In this document: one piece after another, positions 18,457 through 58,131 of the stretch
Layout: every line of letters starts with the position of its first letter
Position numbering within the stretch: the first letter of the stretch is position 1
Source: a phage
Sequence record: PQ724394.1
Direction: 5' to 3' (one strand)
DNA length: 64,000 bases
The notes under the pieces: model-generated
Seen by the model: only the letters and a program-made list of their open reading frames with translations
Database searches by the model: none
Told to the model about the DNA's origin: nothing
Program-made: the position numbers and the translations under genes

Positions 18457-18460
<4 letters not shown>

Positions 18461-18918
18461 ACACCAAGCTCCTTATAAAGTTCTTCACGGCAGGTTTTAA
18501 GGATTTTACCAGTTTCATAAGCCGCACTTTCAGAAACATCACCAAGTGTAGCAGCAGCTTGCATTTGGCCATGGCGCTTAGCCGCATATTCAAAACTTTT
18601 TACCAGCTCACGAATACGTTCTTTTTCTTCGTGAAGTGATTGGTTTTCTTTATAGCACGCCGTAACATCTAAGATTGAATTCCACACATCAGAAGGAATA
18701 GGCTCGGACAATTTCAACACTCGGCTCGGGAAATCATTCCATGGGGCATAGTATTCAACTTCTGTAATAACTCCACCTTTACATTCTGTAATAAAAAATC
18801 GAGCTTTACCTTCCAAAGGTGTTTTACGGCAAGAACCAATTCGGGCCAGCTTTTGGAAGAATTCGTCTTTACACTTCATGATATTATTAGCGTTCTCAAC
18901 ATACCATAATATTTTCAT
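18457..18918 (-). CDS. Hypothetical protein (153 aa from internal ATG)
   Basis: Track start (18954) lies inside the -10 of the promoter cassette; ATG at 18918 has GAGGAA RBS. Confidence 0.5.
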
Positions 18919-18952
18919 GTCCAATTCCTCAATTTTTATAATCCGTAGGAGC

Positions 18953-18982
18953 ATTATACTCTGCTCCCAAGAGTTTGTAAAC
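18953..18982 (-). promoter_or_regulatory. Early promoter (GTTTAC -35, 18 nt, TATAAT -10)
   Basis: Minus strand GTTTAC at 18982-18977 and TATAAT at 18958-18953; -10 within a GGAGCAG/CTGCTCC stem-loop. Confidence 0.55.
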
Positions 18983-19089
18983 TACTTTCCAAAAATACCA
19001 TTCATACACATGCTGAACACGATACCAAAGCAAAAACATGCAGCGCCGAATTTAAAAACATCCCACCCATCGATACAGGCTTCAATCAT
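18982..19089 (-). CDS. Small hydrophobic peptide (35 aa from internal ATG), translationally coupled to o-spanin
   Basis: ATG at 19089 overlaps o-spanin stop (ATGA); MIEACIDGWDVFKFGAACFCFGIVFSMCMNGIFGK. Confidence 0.35.
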   Translation of the reverse strand: MIEACIDGWDVFKFGAACFCFGIVFSMCMNGIFGK

Positions 19090-45359: not shown

Positions 45360-45992
45360 TTAAATTGCGTTGGTTACGGTTTTGATAACTTCAGATGATA
45401 CGTTTTGGAAGTCGATATAAGTATTCTTACCACCAGTCTTAATCTTAACATCAAGATTCAAGGAAGTAAACACTTGTTTTTCTTTATCAGTCATATTATA
45501 ACCGAAGATACGCATCATTCCGTCACGACGGACTTCGATTTGACGAATACCGTTGGTACGTTTAGCGAATCGAACTTCAAGATTGCTACGGTTTTCAGCG
45601 ATTTCACGAATCTCGATACGGTCTTCTAACAAAGATTTAACTTCATCAGCCAATACCACCATTTCAGGAGTAACACCACGCGAACTGCGAGTTTTACGTT
45701 TTTCCAACATCTCTGGAGCATTTTCAGAAGCGAACAGGTCAGCAGCTTTTTGAACTAGGTCCATTGCTTCACCCGTAGCCACCAGTCCATCACCAGATTT
45801 TTCGATGAATCCTTTCTTAATCAATACACCGATGTTAGAGTTAACTACCGCTGCACTAAATTGTTCACTCAGGGCTTCACGGACTTCGCCTGAAGTGATG
45901 AAGTTATTCTTGATGATATGTACTAAGATAGAAGCCGTTTTTTCATTCAGGACGTCTTCAGAAGCTTTGATGATATAAGTAATTTTAGACAT
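45360..45992 (-). CDS. motA: Middle-transcription activator MotA
   Basis: MSKITYIIKASEDVLNEKTASIL...VVNSNIGVLIKKGF.EKSGDGL matches T4 MotA; ATG at 45992 with GGAG RBS (track start is upstream inside promoter). Confidence 0.9.
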   Translation of the reverse strand: MSKITYIIKASEDVLNEKTASILVHIIKNNFITSGEVREALSEQFSAAVVNSNIGVLIKKGFIEKSGDGLVATGEAMDLVQKAADLFASENAPEMLEKRKTRSSRGVTPEMVVLADEVKSLLEDRIEIREIAENRSNLEVRFAKRTNGIRQIEVRRDGMMRIFGYNMTDKEKQVFTSLNLDVKIKTGGKNTYIDFQNVSSEVIKTVTNAI

Positions 45993-46026
45993 TTTAATCT
46001 CCGATAACCATTTATTTGATAGGTCT

Positions 46027-46055
46027 ATAGTATCATGTTTAAAGCAGAAGTAAAC
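46027..46055 (-). promoter_or_regulatory. Early-promoter cassette for motA (GTTTAC -35, 17 nt, TACTAT -10)
   Basis: Minus strand GTTTAC 46055-46050, TACTAT 46032-46027; TGCTTTA element at 46046-46040. Confidence 0.55.
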
Positions 46056-46093
46056 TTTATTAGAGCTCTTTTTCAAGAGCTCTAATAAAGTAC

Positions 46094-46321
46094 TTACTTA
46101 ATGTTCAGATTACGAACTTCGATTTCGTCTTCAGGGGCAAAATCAAACTGTTTGAATTCTGTGTCACCTTTAAATTTAAAAATCATTGTGAAGAAAGTCA
46201 GAACACCGGGTTTTTCTTCACGAACTCCACAGATATCATATTCAATACCATCTACAACCAGTTTGTTAGCAGTCAGAGCATTTTTAGCTTTAACGATTTC
46301 GTTTTCGATTTTAAATTTCAT
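46094..46321 (-). CDS. Hypothetical protein (75 aa)
   Basis: ORF with GGGAGA RBS and cassette upstream. Confidence 0.5.
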   Translation of the reverse strand: MKFKIENEIVKAKNALTANKLVVDGIEYDICGVREEKPGVLTFFTMIFKFKGDTEFKQFDFAPEDEIEVRNLNIK

Positions 46322-46368
46322 TTTTGTATCTCCCGGTTGTTTGTTTCAGTTCATTTATTTGATAGGTC

Positions 46369-46398
46369 TATAGTATCATGTTTAAAGCAGATGTAAAC
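46369..46398 (-). promoter_or_regulatory. Early-promoter cassette (GTTTAC -35, 18 nt, TACTAT -10)
   Basis: Near-identical copy of the motA cassette. Confidence 0.55.
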
Positions 46399-46422
46399 AC
46401 TTTTTTGCACTAAACCCAAAAA

Positions 46423-46438
46423 GGAACCCGAAGGTTCC
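46423..46438 (-). terminator. Rho-independent terminator (UUCG hairpin + U-run) after small ORF
   Basis: GGAACC-cgaa-GGTTCC; on minus transcript followed by UUUUUGGG. Confidence 0.65.
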
Positions 46439-46543
46439 TTACTTTTTAAAGTGAGCCGCTATTAGACCTATAGCTAAGCCCGTTGCCAGGCCTAGGATAA
46501 CAGCAAAGATACAGAGTAACAAGAACTCAACTCCAAGGCTCAT
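46439..46543 (-). CDS. Small hydrophobic peptide (34 aa), coupled to gene 52 stop
   Basis: ATG overlaps gene 52 TGA (ATGA); MSLGVEFLLLCIFAVILGLATGLAIGLIAAHFKK; not in ORF track. Confidence 0.4.
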   Translation of the reverse strand: MSLGVEFLLLCIFAVILGLATGLAIGLIAAHFKK

Positions 46544-47919
46544 AGAGCCTCCAAATCTTTAATATACTCAGTTACAACATCAGTGGTTTTCCAGTATTGG
46601 TGCTCTTCCTTCTTAGCCTTAGCTTCGAGGGCCAATTTCTTGGCTTCGTCAGAGGTAATATGGAAAATATTCATTGCTACAAGTTTATCAGCATATTCGC
46701 CATAGACTTTGTTACTGGCCAATTCTTCGGTTAAAACCTTACGGGTCTTACCTTGGATAACCACTACGCCATCAATAACATCTTTAATGAATGTAGCTTT
46801 AGCCAGGGCCAGTTTGAAAGCTTCTTCGGTTTCGATGATTTTACCATCAATACGTTTTTGTACAAAGGTCTTACGGACCTCAACGAAATCACGAATCAGT
46901 TCAACTGCATCTTCGTAAACCTTAAGTTTACCTTTCTCATTAATAACGGTCAGGTTTTGCGAACGACGTTCGATTAACCCAAAGTCTTTCATGATTTTTT
47001 CGTGCTTCTTATTTTCTTCAGTAGGCAATTCATATTCTTTACGAATCTTAACCTTGAAGCCGAAACCATTCTCGTCACAGTCGTCATCATACGTGATATA
47101 CCCTTTGTCTTCTAAAGGGTCCAGAACCTTGGCCACATACGTTTCACGGTCATATTTGTACGGGATTTCTGTGATATGCATTTGGGTTCGAGATGTGAAC
47201 TTATAGGTCCCACGAATCTCATAACTTCCAGGTTCAATCTCAACAACTTCACCACGGAATTCCGGATAAGCCACCTTAGGCTTGGTTACGCGTTTTTCTT
47301 GAAGAACCTGCAATACAGCTTTCTTAACAGAATCAAAACTATGAGGAAGGATATTAGTTGCATAACCAGTTGCAATACCGGAAATACCATTAAGAAGAAC
47401 AGTAGGAATAATAGGCAGATAAAAAGCTGGTGGCTTATGTTCGACATCCGCATGAACCGGAGCATATTCTGTATCCTTATAAACCTTTGCGAAATTAGTT
47501 CCAATTCGTGCAAAAATATAACGAGATGCCGCTGCTTTTTGAACCAAACGAGAACCAAAGTTACCTTGTCCATCTAACAGTGGGAAGTTGTTGTTCCATG
47601 TGTTGGCCATCAAAGCCCCTGCTTCCTGAGCAGAACCTTCACCATGGTGGTATCCAAGGTCGGCTACACCACCTGCAATAGAAGCTAGTTTGTGGAATTT
47701 TTCTTTATTACCACGAGCCATATCAAGACAACGAGCAACTACAAAACGTTGTACAGGTTTAAAACCGTCAATCATATTTGGAATGGCGCGGTTTTCGACA
47801 GTATACATTGCGTAAGCCAGCGCTTCGTTGTCGATGATGCTTTTTAAGTCACGACGAGTAAAAGCATCATCGTAAACATCTAAGGATTGTTTAAAAAGGG
47901 TATCAATTACATCAGCCAT
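46540..47919 (-). CDS. 52: DNA topoisomerase II medium subunit gp52 (GyrA-like)
   Basis: 459 aa; GyrA/ParC-like block PNMIDGFKPVQRFV; synteny. Confidence 0.9.
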   Translation of the reverse strand: MADVIDTLFKQSLDVYDDAFTRRDLKSIIDNEALAYAMYTVENRAIPNMIDGFKPVQRFVVARCLDMARGNKEKFHKLASIAGGVADLGYHHGEGSAQEAGALMANTWNNNFPLLDGQGNFGSRLVQKAAASRYIFARIGTNFAKVYKDTEYAPVHADVEHKPPAFYLPIIPTVLLNGISGIATGYATNILPHSFDSVKKAVLQVLQEKRVTKPKVAYPEFRGEVVEIEPGSYEIRGTYKFTSRTQMHITEIPYKYDRETYVAKVLDPLEDKGYITYDDDCDENGFGFKVKIRKEYELPTEENKKHEKIMKDFGLIERRSQNLTVINEKGKLKVYEDAVELIRDFVEVRKTFVQKRIDGKIIETEEAFKLALAKATFIKDVIDGVVVIQGKTRKVLTEELASNKVYGEYADKLVAMNIFHITSDEAKKLALEAKAKKEEHQYWKTTDVVTEYIKDLEAL

Positions 47920-47923
47920 AATT

Positions 47924-48064
47924 TTACCATACTAGTGAATGAATAACCATAATAACATCGGAAATAAAAAGCACAACTTGGATAAGACCGAATATTACTC
48001 CATAATACAGCGCTACTAATAAAGCAGCAAGGGCTACAGAGTAGCCCAGGATTTGTTTAATCAT
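47924..48064 (-). CDS. Small membrane peptide (46 aa), not in ORF track
   Basis: MIKQILGYSVALAALLVALYYGVIFGLIQVVLFISDVIMVIHSLVW; ATG overlaps upstream stop. Confidence 0.4.
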   Translation of the reverse strand: MIKQILGYSVALAALLVALYYGVIFGLIQVVLFISDVIMVIHSLVW

Positions 48065-48225
48065 TTCTTGACCAAGGCTTCCAGAAATTTAACGATTGCA
48101 TCAATTACGAACCAAGTGCAAATAAATCCAACAGCGAAAGGACCTGGAACCCACACACCAGCAGCAAAAAGGGTTACCCACACAATAACAATCACGAGCC
48201 AGATAAAAGTATAAATCGGTTGCAT
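48061..48225 (-). CDS. Small membrane protein (54 aa), Ac-like by position
   Basis: MQPIYTFIWLVIVIVWVTLFAAGVWVPGPFAVGFICTWFVIDAIVKFLEALVKK; two predicted TM segments; position of T4 ac. Confidence 0.4.
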   Translation of the reverse strand: MQPIYTFIWLVIVIVWVTLFAAGVWVPGPFAVGFICTWFVIDAIVKFLEALVKK

Positions 48226-48232
48226 AATTTCC

Positions 48233-48313
48233 TCACAAGCGTCCGAAGACGCCTTTGGTTTTAAGATTGTTACGATAGAACTGCATCACATGTTCGTTAT
48301 GGAAATTACTCAT
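48233..48313 (-). CDS. stp: Stp peptide (26 aa)
   Basis: Translates to [26 protein letters not shown], essentially the T4 Stp sequence as recalled; ATG overlaps ndd stop by 1 nt. Confidence 0.8.
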
Positions 48314-48762
48314 TAGTAAGCCTGCAGAACGAATTTGAAGTTATCGGCCAACATGCGGTTCATTTCTTCCAGAGTCTGAAGGTCGGAACTATGGTTGCGA
48401 GTGAAAGCCATTGCAATTTGACCTTTACCAAAGCCTGTGGTCAGTGGTTTCATTTTAGAAGCTGGCACATAAAGAACTTCGTACAGAACACCATTTACGG
48501 CCATGGTACGAGCTGATTGTGAACGTTTCTTACGAATGTTAGCCACGATACCATCAAGACCTTGAGCTGAACGTTGGTTGCCGACATAAAAACGAGCGGC
48601 TACGACACGAGAATCTGCTTCACCTTTAACAAAGAAGTAGAAGCCGGGCTGAGCCGAGATTTCTTTAGAAGGCTTACCATTTTGGTATTCGCCATTCTTA
48701 ACATAAGCAACAGTAGTAGCACCAGCAGACAGAACGTTACCGCGAGTCATATAAGTATTCAT
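48313..48762 (-). CDS. ndd: Nucleoid disruption protein Ndd
   Basis: 149 aa; ..[12 protein letters not shown]...RKKRSQ.ART.A...[24 protein letters not shown]...[21 protein letters not shown] matches T4 Ndd. Confidence 0.9.
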
Positions 48763-48803
48763 ATCAATTTCCTCAGTAGATTAATGTTTTGTTATCCAGT
48801 CAA

Positions 48804-48840
48804 CGAGAACCATTATAACATGATTCTCGAGGTTGTAAAC
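48804..48840 (-). promoter_or_regulatory. Early promoter for ndd (GTTTAC -35, 17 nt, TATAAT -10 in loop of CGAGAA/TTCTCG stem)
   Basis: Minus strand GTTTAC 48840-48835, TATAAT 48817-48812. Confidence 0.6.
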
Positions 48841-49184
48841 TATTTTTGTAGCTGTTCTAAAATAAATCCGCTTGTATAAAAGGAAGCATTATAAACCTTA
48901 TTCAGCGGGTTCAAAGCACGTCCATAGGTATCACGTAATTCTTCGATAACATTTTCGTAGCTCACATAGTAAGCACTACGATAGTCAGGGTCCATGCTCA
49001 TACGGAATTTGATGAATCGATAAAACCCTGTATCCGGGTCTTGAACGAAAACGAAATCCGCACTTGCCATAGTTTTTGAATCTAACCCAGTAACCAGTTC
49101 TTGATTAAAGGCTGCCAATGCCTCTTTAAGACTGAGTTGCTCAAAGAACATAACCTTAGCATTACCAAAAAATACTTTAGACAT
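48840..49184 (-). CDS. Hypothetical protein (114 aa)
   Basis: ORF upstream of ndd. Confidence 0.5.
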   Translation of the reverse strand: MSKVFFGNAKVMFFEQLSLKEALAAFNQELVTGLDSKTMASADFVFVQDPDTGFYRFIKFRMSMDPDYRSAYYVSYENVIEELRDTYGRALNPLNKVYNASFYTSGFILEQLQK

Positions 49185-49198
49185 AATATTTTCCTCAA

Positions 49199-49423
49199 TT
49201 ATTCAGAGTCGACTTCTTCTGATAATTCCATCAGTTCATCAACCGTGAAACACTCTGTATTATTTTCAATAGCAAAACGCTTTTGATAAAAAGGATAATC
49301 CAAACAGTTTTCAGTACGAATAGGCCGCTCGCTATTATCCATTAAAGGAGAAATACGAATCAATTGTTGACCATTACCTAAGACAAATTTTTCACCAACT
49401 GCGATATCTTTAAAAAGTTTCAT
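49199..49423 (-). CDS. Hypothetical protein (74 aa from internal ATG)
   Basis: ATG 49423 with GAGGAA RBS overlapping upstream stop. Confidence 0.45.
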   Translation of the reverse strand: MKLFKDIAVGEKFVLGNGQQLIRISPLMDNSERPIRTENCLDYPFYQKRFAIENNTECFTVDELMELSEEVDSE

Positions 49424-49439
49424 AATATTTTCCTCGGAA

Positions 49440-49586
49440 TTAAAGAACTTCTTCAATTTGGATGTATTCGCTATATCCTTCCTCGATGAGGATATCACGG
49501 GCGCAGTCAGCGCTGATATAAAAATTAAAACTAACGGTAGTAATCACTTTACCATGCAACTTTACTTTATAAATTCGATTACCCAT
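49440..49586 (-). CDS. Hypothetical protein (48 aa from internal ATG)
   Basis: ATG 49586 with GAGGAA RBS; track start is TTG. Confidence 0.4.
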   Translation of the reverse strand: MGNRIYKVKLHGKVITTVSFNFYISADCARDILIEEGYSEYIQIEEVL

Positions 49587-49596
49587 AATATTTTCC

Positions 49597-49707
49597 TCAG
49601 AAGTTAAAGAATACACGTACATGGTCAATCATAAAAACTATTGGGAAAATGCTCAATACTACTAACAACACAAACATATTCCAAATTGCTTTAAGTAAGT
49701 TTTTCAT
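49597..49707 (-). CDS. Small hydrophobic peptide (36 aa), not in ORF track
   Basis: MKNLLKAIWNMFVLLVVLSIFPIVFMIDHVRVFFNF; GGAGATGATT RBS; directly downstream of cassette 49734-49762. Confidence 0.4.
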   Translation of the reverse strand: MKNLLKAIWNMFVLLVVLSIFPIVFMIDHVRVFFNF

Positions 49708-49733
49708 AATCATCTCCATTAGTTGATAGGTCT

Positions 49734-49762
49734 ATAATATCATGTCTAATGGAGATGTAAAC
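49734..49762 (-). promoter_or_regulatory. Early-promoter cassette (GTTTAC -35, 17 nt, TATTAT -10)
   Basis: Minus strand GTTTAC 49762-49757, TATTAT 49739-49734. Confidence 0.55.
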
Positions 49763-49766
49763 TGAT

Positions 49767-49898
49767 TTATCGTTTTTCGTAGTATTCTATTATACCACCG
49801 TAAGTTCTTTGGGCATTTAAAGCCTGGCACTCAAAAATGTAATCGCGCATAACTAACCAGTTACCGAACTTATCTTTACCAAATTTATGTATATACAT
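49767..49898 (-). CDS. Small ORF (43 aa), not in ORF track
   Basis: MYIHKFGKDKFGNWLVMRDYIFECQALNAQRTYGGIIEYYEKR; GAGGA RBS with short spacer. Confidence 0.3.
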   Translation of the reverse strand: MYIHKFGKDKFGNWLVMRDYIFECQALNAQRTYGGIIEYYEKR

Positions 49899-49987
49899 AA
49901 ATCCTCATTATAAAATTATAATTAAACTAAAACATATACAAATAAATGGAATACAAGTCATCCAAATAAAGCACCAGGTTTTGCTAC

Positions 49988-50254
49988 TCAAAATACAACC
50001 TCTTTTATCTCAATCAAACCACGGTGCAATGCAGTGCGGAGGTCGTAAAGAATATCTATACCATCAACATTATCCAGCTTGCCATCAATAAGCTTTTTTA
50101 AATCTTCCTTTGATGCAATCAACGGGCGAAGAAATTTACATTCAGAAAGAGATAACTCTGTAGTAACATTATCACCTTCACCTGATGCATCATACATAGC
50201 GGCAACAACCATACCCGTAACTTTGTGTTTAGCGTAATATAATTTGATATCCAT
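49988..50254 (-). CDS. Hypothetical protein (88 aa from internal ATG)
   Basis: ATG 50254 with GAGGAG RBS; track start lies in promoter cassette. Confidence 0.45.
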   Translation of the reverse strand: MDIKLYYAKHKVTGMVVAAMYDASGEGDNVTTELSLSECKFLRPLIASKEDLKKLIDGKLDNVDGIDILYDLRTALHRGLIEIKEVVF

Positions 50255-50326
50255 TTTGTTCTCCTCATTAGTTGATAGGAAGATAGTAACACCATCCATG
50301 GCGTATGTAAACACTTATTTTAAAAA

Positions 50327-57515: not shown

Positions 57516-57692
57516 TCACTTAGTTAGCAGGTCATAGAACCCGCCGTTAACATGTTTAGGAGCTGAAACTAACCGAACAGCCAGCCGATGGCAATCAGGG
57601 CAAACATCATTATCTCTTTCAGAGATTTTCTTGATTTTTTCGTATTCTTTTGCACAGTCTTCGGATTGGCATTTGTAATCATAAAGCGGCAT
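57516..57692 (-). CDS. Small zinc-ribbon protein, FmdB-like (58 aa), not in ORF track
   Basis: MPLYDYKCQSEDC...CPDC: two CxxC pairs with the Y.YKC N-terminal pattern of FmdB-family zinc ribbons. Confidence 0.5.
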   Translation of the reverse strand: MPLYDYKCQSEDCAKEYEKIKKISERDNDVCPDCHRLAVRLVSAPKHVNGGFYDLLTK

Positions 57693-57693
57693 A

Positions 57694-58131
57694 TTATTCC
57701 TTAAAGTGGGCTTTCAACATCTGGTAAACTGTCCAGGCTTCAGAATTATTAGAGATAGTGATTTTAGTCAAAGGGAAATCACTCGGTTCAGATGGGGCTG
57801 CGTCTTCAGACTGGTCTTCGTCTTCAGAAAAACCATCTTCGGCCCATTCGTCTTCACTGTCAACTACAACCATTTCCGTAAAGAATTTACGCTCGCTTGG
57901 ATATAAAACCATATCAATGTTATCACCATAAGCCAAGTCCACGTTCATCACATAACCTGCCGCTAATCTAACAGGGCAAAAACCTTCAGCATTGACAATA
58001 ATATCGGCTAAGCTAGAATTATCAGGATTCCTAATATTATGGGCATTCAGCTTACGGAATTCAGCTTCTGCCGCGTCATCTTTAAAATAGTACCATTTAC
58101 CTTTTTCAAATTCGAGTTCTTGATTAAGCAT
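57694..58131 (-). CDS. Hypothetical protein with acidic C-terminal tract (146 aa from internal ATG)
   Basis: ATG 58131 with GGAAGGAA RBS; DSEDEWAEDGFSEDEDQSED tract. Confidence 0.45.
   Translation of the reverse strand: MLNQELEFEKGKWYYFKDDAAEAEFRKLNAHNIRNPDNSSLADIIVNAEGFCPVRLAAGYVMNVDLAYGDNIDMVLYPSERKFFTEMVVVDSEDEWAEDGFSEDEDQSEDAAPSEPSDFPLTKITISNNSEAWTVYQMLKAHFKE

Follow-up and report, generated by a model that had tools for sequence, protein, structure and literature searches.

The DNA analyzed here, a 64,000-nucleotide stretch of sequence record PQ724394.1 (the window), belongs to a T4-type coliphage of the genus Dhakavirus that resembles JS10 and JS98, and contains the core gene 52 placed between very small minus-strand open reading frames (ORFs) of 54, 46 and 34 aa that show two ATGA overlaps. 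The 459-aa product of gene 52 is 99.6% identical to gp52 of phage dhabil and 81% identical to that of the T2/RB9 group, and the JS10 counterpart is annotated as gp52. The gene order matches the T4 interval ndd-stp-ac-52.1-52-motA.1 slot by slot, in agreement with the original prediction, which had likened this region to the part of the T4 genome that holds ac and other small membrane proteins; clusters of small predicted membrane proteins have been on record for this region ever since the T4 genome was annotated. The features considered in this work are the following, the promoters and the terminator being assigned purely as consensus matches:

18982-19089, minus strand: 35-aa Cys-rich hydrophobic peptide (phrog_23289)
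46370-46397, minus strand: predicted early promoter directly after the terminator, TTTACA-16-TACTAT with TG
46421-46440, minus strand: predicted intrinsic terminator hairpin, GGAACC-TTCG-GGTTCC followed by a T-run, overlapping the stop codon of the 34-aa ORF
46439-46543, minus strand: 34-aa predicted single-pass membrane peptide (MSLGVEF...HFKK), putative last gene of the gene-52 transcription unit
46540-47919, minus strand: gene 52, DNA topoisomerase II medium subunit, 459-aa ORF
47924-48064, minus strand: 46-aa ortholog of T4 gp52.1 (DUF7396), ending 4 nt before gene 52
48061-48225, minus strand: 54-aa membrane protein predicted to form a two-helix hairpin, from the family with a G-[AV]-W-x-P loop (phrog_9347), in the slot of T4 ac
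48233-48313, minus strand: stp, 26-aa activator of the host PrrC anticodon nuclease (Pfam PF08133, E=1e-20; phrog_6763)
48812-48839, minus strand: predicted sigma-70-type early promoter upstream of ndd, 11/12 consensus matches plus a TG extended -10
49597-49707, minus strand: 36-aa ortholog of T4 Ndd.4, predicted single-pass inner-membrane peptide (phrog_3098)
49908-49991, minus strand: 27-aa hydrophobic ORF with a TTG start, T4 Ndd.6-like in a comparison by eye

Along with the three ORFs beside gene 52, the original prediction had pointed to similar peptides at 49597-49707 and 18982-19089. The coordinates and the hydrophobic character of the three (34, 46 and 54 aa) held up, and both proposed ATGA couplings are found in the sequence, at 46540-46543 and 48061-48064; across all five flagged ORFs, GRAVY values range from 1.1 to 1.9 and uncharged stretches comprise 16-39 residues. 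A census of the whole 64-kb window identified just four strongly hydrophobic small sense-strand ORFs in the gaps between large ORFs, precisely those flagged at 46.4-49.7 kb. Related phages retain all five flagged frames, and pN is much lower than pS in each case, so that the lack of frame conservation that was to count against the peptides was clearly not observed; given this conservation, the five ORFs are genes rather than chance frames and, judging from the substitution patterns, they are under purifying selection. All five are present in PHROGs, with full-length matches (E=1e-20 to 1e-25), and the GenBank genomes of relatives list proteins with complete or 96-100% identity to them, labeled as hypothetical or as putative membrane proteins. 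Thus, the description of the peptides as unannotated applies to the ORF-length cut-off used for the window but not to the relatives, in which these small membrane-protein genes are already carried and mostly annotated, as is ordinary for T4-like phages. The additional peptides are similar to those beside gene 52 in kind but not by descent: the five fall into separate BLAST clusters, and the family HMMs gave no cross-matches in the window. In Pfam and NCBIfam, no peptide matches a holin, antiholin, Imm or other named family, the sole named match being DUF7396; the NCBIfam search returned zero matches, and a PDB sequence-profile search yielded noise alone (E above 0.1).

The 46-aa ORF matches Pfam PF24129 (DUF7396) over residues 1-46 of 46 (77.4 bits, with a cut-off of 27) as well as phrog_3595 (E=1e-23) and shares 89% identity with T4 52.1, which identifies it as the ortholog of T4 gp52.1/DUF7396. 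The two proteins are of equal length and have the YYG and VLFISDVI motifs in common; the overlap with the upstream gene is 8 nt for T4 52.1 and 4 nt here (the stop of the 54-aa ORF and the start of the 46-aa ORF share the ATGA at 48061-48064), with otherwise no difference of substance. The N-terminal part of the protein is a predicted membrane anchor, after which comes the conserved VLFISDVI segment; AlphaFold2 models it as a single helix (residues 2-45, pLDDT 95.7), and its dN/dS is ~0.05-0.5, mostly 0.3 or below. A word-indexed homolog search with 52.1 returned 7 close relatives, a number that is no measure of the breadth of the family. Shared ancestry of 52.1 with the 54-aa family or with the upstream family of Acinetobacter phages was also considered, and both comparisons were negative.

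On the other side of gene 52, the 34-aa ORF starts in the ATGA (46540-46543) that includes the gene 52 stop, is preceded by a GGAGG Shine-Dalgarno sequence, and matches phrog_16377 over its full length (E=2e-21, 1-34 of 34). In comparisons with relatives, pN is 0-0.013 and pS 0.12-0.40; E33 and MX01 annotate an identical protein, and MN04 annotates the same ORF. The peptide contains a GxxxGxxxG motif (G18/G22/G26) in which G18 and G26 are invariant and position 22 is G or A. The ORF occupies the slot of T4 MotA.1 (49 aa): both have a 4-nt ATGA overlap with the gene 52 stop, each is the last gene before a terminator and a promoter upstream of motA, and both products are hydrophobic and Gly-rich. 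However, the 34-aa peptide is shorter than MotA.1, has one membrane span and lacks detectable homology to it (no match by local tblastn run without the low-complexity filter, hhalign probability 0.5%), and an HMM of MotA.1 found no homolog in any of the six frames of the window. Furthermore, the 34-aa ORF is followed by a 75-aa cassette ORF whereas none follows motA.1 in T4.

Upstream of the 54-aa ORF, the gene order is again that of T4, with stp directly adjacent. The more distal ORF at 49597-49719 encodes 40 aa, or 36 aa if started at the internal ATG 49707, which is preceded by GGAG at a distance of 6 nt and is the point where the match to phrog_3098 begins (E=4e-21, profile positions 1-36 of 37); this ATG is the likely start here, in contrast to the upstream ATG in the annotation of T4 Ndd.4. 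The product of 49597-49707 is 59% identical to T4 Ndd.4 and has its KAIWN...SIFPIV...MID core; as in T4, it is encoded in this region and in an early-promoter setting, here by the first gene after a putative early promoter at 49761-49734 (minus strand). These similarities identify it as the ortholog of Ndd.4. Its dN/dS is ~0.1, and an identical protein of MX01 is annotated as "putative inner membrane". The 27-aa ORF at 49908-49991, which is absent from the list of the original prediction, has a GAGG Shine-Dalgarno sequence and a TTGA overlap with the upstream stop.

The predicted early promoter at ~48839 would transcribe ndd-stp-54aa-46aa-gene 52-34aa as a single unit that would end at the hairpin 46440-46421, and the ATGA overlaps would couple the 46-aa and 34-aa peptides translationally to the genes upstream of them. 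The hairpin 46440-46421 and the promoter 46397-46370 correspond to the stem-loop and promoter halves of a PeSL-type element. This promoter sits in one of two 47-nt direct repeats (46009-46055 and 46352-46398, 98% identical) that flank the 75-aa ORF, and a 22-nt PeSL core is present in six copies in the window compared with 0 expected. The combination of a stem-loop terminator and a conserved early promoter, repeated near variable ORFs, is, on these consensus matches, that of a PeSL-type element; such promoter-early stem-loops of T4-like phages were reportedly described by Arbiol in 2010. In T4, motA.1, 52.1, ac and ndd.4 are classed as early transcripts, and the corresponding proteins were undetected by mass spectrometry (Class_P = NA; PMC9697503 Table S2), an outcome to be expected of tiny hydrophobic peptides but one that does not confirm them either.

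The 54-aa ORF is preceded by a GAGGAAA Shine-Dalgarno sequence and matches phrog_9347 over its full length (E=4e-25); its dN/dS is 0.22-0.30, and in the family alignment G23 and P27 are invariant and W25 is nearly so. The family comprises 28 clusters of proteins of ~52 residues, found in ~170-kb genomes of T4-like phages wherever the contigs are long enough to judge, and its named members belong to Escherichia and Klebsiella phages. Within Dhakavirus, there are two variants that share only ~33% identity with each other, and the window carries the rare one: across the ORF, DNA identity falls to 46-47% to JS10/MN04, compared with 94-96% in the flanks, but reaches 99% to VR5 and 74-76% to VR20/VR26. 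The drop relative to JS10/MN04 is sharp and confined to this ORF, a pattern indicating that the ORF is exchanged as a cassette. The AlphaFold2 model consists of helices 3-22 and 29-52 (pLDDT 84.5), and a Foldseek search of this model against PDB revealed no structural relative, with one match at E=9.

The gene at this position in T4 is ac, loss of which confers acridine resistance and expression of which sensitizes E. coli to acriflavine and ampicillin, with a block of AcrAB-TolC proposed (bioRxiv 10.1101/2025.06.30.662393). We considered the possibility that the 54-aa ORF is the version of Ac in this phage, as an ortholog that has diverged or as a functional substitute, with the same acridine-sensitivity and efflux-blocking phenotype. 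Like T4 Ac (51 aa), it lies between stp and 52.1 and overlaps the 52.1 start; both proteins are hydrophobic, of ~50 aa, early-expressed (as predicted for the 54-aa protein) and two-helix hairpins, according to the AlphaFold2 model here and to the two short helices described in the preprint for Ac; and the window contains no other Ac-like gene. Nevertheless, this appears unlikely. A tblastn search of the window with T4 Ac was empty, hhalign against the Ac family gave a probability of 0.2%, and the Ac-family HMM detected no Ac gene anywhere in the six frames of the 64-kb window. The conserved motifs are unlike as well, a G-[AV]-W-x-P loop in the 54-aa family and an S/T-V-x-SQ-x-AQG region in Ac. 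Moreover, the two families are found side by side in three of the compared loci, from JS98-type Dhakaviruses and phage EcS1, and accordingly are not alternative versions of one gene. The acridine phenotype is established for T4 Ac and none is known for the 54-aa family; the suggested link of the locus to ac and acridines fails for the window, which lacks an Ac-family gene, so acridine sensitivity cannot be carried over from T4.

The original prediction further proposed that the peptides exclude superinfecting phages, set the time of lysis or modulate the membrane potential, tasks for which T4 offers the precedent of the small membrane proteins Imm, Sp, RI, RIII and holin T. The best candidate for a role in lysis is the 35-aa ORF, the start of which overlaps by ATGA the stop of the o-spanin gene pseT.2 and is preceded by a GAGGAG Shine-Dalgarno sequence, an arrangement that predicts translational coupling to the o-spanin gene. 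This ORF matches phrog_23289 (E=7e-20, 1-35 of 35), has pN of 0.09-0.13 and pS of 0.64-0.81, and appears to be Dhakavirus-specific. In T4, however, the post-spanin position is occupied by PseT.1, an unrelated soluble protein of 75 aa, and searches of the peptides for holin, antiholin and superinfection-immunity models (T, RI, RIII, Imm, Sp) in Pfam, PHROGs and NCBIfam found none at E up to 1. We consider these roles quite unlikely for the peptides described here.

Comparison of 49 loci shows how fluid the borders of gene 52 are. Upstream of 52.1, variable combinations of at least five hairpin families are observed; the slot after gene 52 is filled by at least seven unrelated families, with a small hydrophobic ORF beginning within 12 nt of the gene 52 stop in 36 of the 49 loci. 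Where 52.1 itself is missing, most loci have an unrelated small membrane ORF (from four families) just upstream of gene 52. A bolder interpretation of these observations is that the slots adjacent to gene 52 must hold translationally linked membrane peptides, whatever their sequence: 52.1 or an unrelated hairpin upstream, and a stop-overlapping ORF from one of at least seven unrelated families downstream. If so, the phage topoisomerase would be the working partner of the peptides, which might, for example, anchor replication or decatenation to the membrane. A different possibility is that the whole array is an interchangeable toolkit of inhibitors directed at machinery of the host inner membrane (efflux pumps and transporters, for instance), in which case the 54-aa hairpin would replace Ac functionally without being homologous to it. 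We regard this pair of proposals as distinctly improbable.

The narrower version, under which gp52.1 and the 34-aa peptide are partners of the topoisomerase that tether it, or replicating DNA, to the inner membrane, is very unlikely in our estimation. The same counts speak for it: 52.1 abuts gene 52 upstream, on the same strand, in T4 and 37 related loci, the prevalence of stop-proximal hydrophobic ORFs downstream spans all those families, and the ATGA overlap implies co-expression. Small membrane genes, however, crowd the border of gene 52, so that adjacency is possibly incidental; the downstream small ORF is absent from several T4-like lineages; and a T4 phage whose deletion runs from gp52.1 to rIIB, 52.1 included, is viable and forms plaques (PMC9712115 Table 1). 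A literature search of limited scope returned nothing usable on membrane association of the T4 topoisomerase.

Finally, the notion that the frames are open merely by chance, in intergenic DNA that is rich in AT, or mask non-coding RNA elements is exceedingly improbable: the ORFs are indeed very short, hydrophobic frames arise readily from T-rich sequence, and one comparable antisense ORF exists in the window (57588-57704), but the conservation analysis rules out chance frames, given that different genera retain the frames together with their lengths, start contexts and overlaps, synonymous changes far outnumber non-synonymous ones and the PHROG and Pfam matches span the full length, whereas in Rfam no family reaches even one third of its gathering score throughout 45900-50100, the low-scoring matches being terminator hairpins that resemble miRNA precursors.

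Taken together, these observations make it probable that the small ORFs, which are real genes, encode tiny inner-membrane proteins of an accessory, fast-changing early region beside gene 52. By analogy, the most likely role of these accessory proteins, made early, is to modulate the envelope of the host. Under this scenario, the peptides would be in the host inner membrane minutes after infection and would act by binding or perturbing host envelope proteins; the analogy for such a mode of action comes from one preprint, on the non-homologous T4 Ac, the only experimentally studied neighbor that suggests it. The peptides would be dispensable on laboratory hosts, in keeping with the accessory status that the plaque-forming T4 deletion from gp52.1 to rIIB points to, with an advantage that depends on the host or the environment, which would explain the cassette-like turnover next to PeSL elements.

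With respect to annotation, five to six real genes below the length cut-off in the window deserve to be called; two of the ORFs can be named (52.1 and ndd.4) whereas the 54-aa ORF should not become "ac". More generally, the locus shows T4-like phages keeping rapidly exchanged tiny membrane proteins beside a core replication gene, and systematic tests of such cassettes could reveal the ways in which large lytic phages remodel the envelope of the host soon after infection.

With known PeSL elements, the window shares the placing of a conserved early promoter directly behind a stem-loop terminator, and the unit in the window likewise is repeated in tandem around a small ORF at the edge of variable cassettes. 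PeSL-mediated swapping of ndd.4/.5 has been described (Comeau 2014, PMC4122927), and, as cited in PMC4122927, promoter activity and mini-circle excision/integration of PeSL have been shown experimentally for RB49/phi1. The exchange of the 54-aa variant differs in that its borders lie in coding sequence (stp and 52.1) and not in PeSLs; it probably occurred by ordinary homologous recombination in the conserved flanks. As for the proposed activity, the phage peptides would follow the mode of action of bacterial peptides to which they are unrelated in sequence. These bacterial small inner-membrane regulators, AcrZ, MgrB and MgtS among them, have lengths of 30-55 aa, cross the membrane once or twice and exert their effects by binding membrane proteins larger than themselves.

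All three short ORFs that the original prediction placed around gene 52, the gene for the medium subunit of DNA topoisomerase II, are present at the predicted sizes, as are the two similar peptides elsewhere (49597 and 18982). The ORFs flanking gene 52 are on the minus strand, which carries nearly all genes in this part of the window. Megablast of 46300-48400 yields 93-96% identity to Dhakavirus genomes (MN04, JS10, dhabil, VR5, JS98-like) and lower identity to Tequatrovirus and other T4-type phages. The relevant genes are as follows:

18982..19089, minus strand: 35-aa ORF, its start overlapping the stop of the o-spanin gene pseT.2
46439..46543, minus strand: 34-aa ORF
46540..47919, minus strand: gene 52, 459 aa
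47924..48064, minus strand: 46-aa ORF
48061..48225, minus strand: 54-aa ORF
48233..48313, minus strand: stp, 26-aa ortholog of T4 Stp (Pfam PF08133, E=1e-20)
48313..48762, minus strand: ndd
49597..49719, minus strand: ndd.4-like ORF, 40 aa, or 36 aa from the ATG at 49707
49908..49991, minus strand: 27-aa ORF, very hydrophobic, TTG start

Both predicted ATGA overlaps can be read in the minus-strand sequence: the end of gene 52 (GAG GCT CTA TGA) contains the ATG of the 34-aa ORF, with GGAGG ahead of it, and the end of the 54-aa ORF (AAG AAA TGA) contains that of the 46-aa ORF. GAGGAAA lies upstream of the 54-aa ORF, GGAG 6 nt upstream of the ATG at 49707, and GAGGAG before the ATG of the 35-aa ORF. 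Like the flagged ORFs, stp, whose T4 counterpart encodes a peptide activator of the host anticodon nuclease PrrC, falls under a typical ORF cut-off. The 27-aa ORF, absent from the original prediction, is preceded by the Shine-Dalgarno sequence GAGG, overlaps the stop of a 108-aa ORF (49988..50314) by TTGA, and by eye resembles T4 Ndd.6.

A census across the 64 kb covered all ATG-started ORFs of 20-74 aa situated in gaps between larger ORFs. Just four of those on the sense strand contain a strongly hydrophobic 17-residue window, namely the 34-, 46-, 54- and 40-aa ORFs at 46.4-49.7 kb; one antisense ORF has a comparable score. We consider conservation the stronger test, and examined it in 48 loci around gene 52 from IMG/VR together with the annotated JS10, MN04 and T4 loci. 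The 34-aa ORF differs from its relatives by 3-10 synonymous and 0-1 non-synonymous changes (pS 0.12-0.40, pN 0-0.013); dN/dS is 0.05-0.5 for the 46-aa ORF (mostly 0.3 or below, including phages with saturated synonymous sites), 0.22-0.30 for the 54-aa ORF and ~0.1 for the ndd.4-like ORF; and among five Dhakaviruses the 35-aa ORF shows pN of 0.09-0.13 versus pS of 0.64-0.81. Judged from sequence, the flagged ORFs are genes, because all five frames are conserved in related phages and non-synonymous changes are few compared with synonymous ones.

The gene order in T4 is ndd - stp - ac (51 aa) - 52.1 (46 aa) - 52 - motA.1 (49 aa) - motA. The 46-aa protein is 89% identical to T4 52.1 and matches Pfam DUF7396 (77 bits, cut-off 27); the 49597 product shares 59% identity with T4 Ndd.4 and matches the PHROGs family phrog_3098 end to end. 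The 54-aa ORF, a member of phrog_9347, the aligned members of which have in common a G-[AV]-W-x-P loop joining two hydrophobic segments, occupies the slot of ac, the acridine sensitivity gene of T4. Nevertheless, we reject its identification as Ac, because T4 Ac has no tblastn match in the window, the profile-profile probability against an alignment of Ac-like peptides is 0.2%, and some genomes, those of JS98-type Dhakaviruses and of phage EcS1, contain both families. The 34-aa ORF (phrog_16377) sits in the motA.1 slot, and T4 motA.1 likewise has a 4-nt overlap with gene 52, but the two are unrelated by tblastn and profile-profile comparison. The original expectation that this region holds ac as in T4 thus does not apply to this phage: the Ac-family HMM, like that of MotA.1, has zero matches in the whole 64 kb. 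At the position of the 35-aa ORF (phrog_23289), T4 has the unrelated 75-aa PseT.1.

All flagged peptides are very hydrophobic (GRAVY 1.1-1.9). AlphaFold2, given a 28-sequence alignment, predicts the 54-aa protein to be a hairpin (helix 3-22, loop 23-28, GVWVPG, helix 29-52; mean pLDDT 84.5), with charges only in the C-terminal DAIVKFLEALVKK tail. The 46-aa protein is predicted to form a single 44-residue helix (pLDDT 95.7), uncharged at residues 5-28; its C-terminal half contains the most conserved segment, VLFISDVI, and Q29, S35, D36, H42 and S43 at heptad spacing on one face. In the 34-aa peptide, a single uncharged stretch spans residues 7-30, E6 is invariant, the C-terminus ends in KK, and a GxxxGxxxG motif (G18/G22/G26) is retained in Gaprivervirus relatives.

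The predicted transcription unit is ndd-stp-54aa-46aa-gene 52-34aa, and the signals in the region are as follows:

49761..49734, minus strand: near-consensus sigma-70 promoter, extended -10, upstream of the ndd.4 ortholog
48839..48812, minus strand: near-consensus sigma-70 promoter, extended -10, upstream of ndd
46440..46421, minus strand: GC-rich hairpin and T-run, overlapping the stop codon of the 34-aa ORF
46397..46370, minus strand: early-type promoter directly after the hairpin

In T4, motA.1, 52.1, ac, stp and ndd.2-ndd.6 give early transcripts, and none has been detected as protein (PMC9697503 Table S2); peptides of this kind would be expected to escape detection, but that does not prove that they are translated. 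T4 with a deletion running from gp52.1 to rIIB is viable (PMC9712115 Table 1); on laboratory hosts, therefore, T4 can do without the cluster.

Experimental data exist for Ac alone: its loss confers acriflavine resistance, its expression sensitizes E. coli to acriflavine and ampicillin, and a block of AcrAB-TolC is the mechanism proposed in a preprint (bioRxiv 10.1101/2025.06.30.662393; also cited in PMC13250531). The flagged peptides are related neither to Ac nor to any named family; Pfam, PHROGs, NCBIfam, PDB sequences and Foldseek against PDB yielded nothing informative on their function, and no Rfam family accounts for the region. Location, timing, hydrophobicity, turnover and the Ac precedent point to a role as early accessory inner-membrane proteins that would act on components of the host envelope and might be retained for a benefit on particular hosts and exchanged as cassettes; we infer this to be the best reading. 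The superinfection exclusion or lysis roles originally proposed seem improbable, and tethering of the phage topoisomerase slightly more so.

Proteins identical to the 34-aa and 36-aa products are listed in NCBI as 'hypothetical protein' or 'putative inner membrane', VR5_262 shares 98% identity with the 54-aa protein, whose sequence also occurs unchanged in ENA contigs, and the 35-aa ORF is already annotated in UP19 and dhaeg. The finding of small membrane proteins is correct but already known in kind; its value is for genome annotation.

When every small hydrophobic ORF in the vicinity of gene 52 is clustered over 49 loci, an array of cassettes emerges. In all 37 loci that have it, the 52.1 gene lies directly upstream of gene 52, and is preceded by variable combinations of four unrelated ~50-aa hairpin families (a 57-72-aa 'FER..CG' family, the 54-aa family, Ac and an Ac-position family); Acinetobacter-type phages have another hairpin in its place, unrelated to 52.1 by hhalign. 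A small hydrophobic ORF starts within 12 nt of the gene 52 stop in 36 of the 49 loci, and these ORFs represent at least seven families without detectable similarity. Within Dhakavirus, the 54-aa gene exists in two variants, ~33% identical. At the DNA level, the window matches JS10/MN04 at 46-47% identity over this gene, versus 94-96% over stp, 52.1, gene 52 and the 34-aa ORF. Identity of the window's variant to the VR5 copy is 99%, and to the copies in the Gapriverviruses VR20/VR26 it is 74-76%; tblastn at E up to 1e-3 detects this variant in only 14 of 50,697 phage records. The whole family comprises 28 clusters in a 5.8-billion-protein collection; its contigs, where long enough to judge, are ~170-kb T4-like phage genomes, and its named members are labelled only 'hypothetical' or 'putative membrane protein'.

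In two JS98-type Dhakaviruses (L005, 2647-3490, and L017), an extra module lies upstream of the normal stp, 53-aa and 52.1 genes. It contains a further, divergent stp, a 49-aa gene resembling ac and a truncated piece of 52.1, and looks like a recombination scar with stp and 52.1 as homology arms. In Escherichia phage vB_EcoM_005 (L034, 3301-4829), the 53-aa gene is extended to 70 aa, only a fragment of 52.1 is present, gene 52 is cut to 395 aa and the 34-aa ORF lies 37 nt farther downstream, which could reflect deletion, frameshift or assembly error. T4 ndd.2a (L003, 2350-2472), annotated at 40 aa, is equivalent to the C-terminal portion of an ORF that has 65 aa in other Tequatroviruses (L011-L013, L039), and its homologs in other genera have 62-71 aa and a conserved GLKSVVETIWNG motif; the T4 reference gene may be a truncated form or have been assigned the wrong start. 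The 165-aa ORF 18457..18954 (minus strand), downstream of the 35-aa peptide, is another mosaic gene, with a divergent middle, conserved ends and two forms (165 and 172 aa) among Dhakaviruses.

The terminator-plus-promoter unit behind the 34-aa ORF is duplicated. Direct repeats of 47 nt, 98% identical (46009-46055 and 46352-46398), bracket a 75-aa ORF (46094..46321, minus strand), which looks like a mobile cassette: the same ORF, with one amino-acid difference, follows motA.1 in a Tequatrovirus-like locus (L013) where gene 52 is only 81% identical. The window contains six copies, with at most one mismatch, of a 22-nt core, TTGATAGGTCTATAGTATCATG (plus coordinates 28302, 29376, 46016, 46359, 49723 and 63699), compared with 0 expected from shuffles; the reverse complement of this core is the -10 and start region of early promoters on the minus strand. 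Because both repeats are early promoters and a stem-loop precedes each (46054-46091; 46421-46440), the pairs in 46009-46440 are two tandem elements of the PeSL (promoter-early stem-loop) type. The duplicated unit agrees with the PeSL elements of T4-like phages, which have been proposed to mediate cassette exchange in these phages, including that of ndd.4/.5 (PMC4122927).
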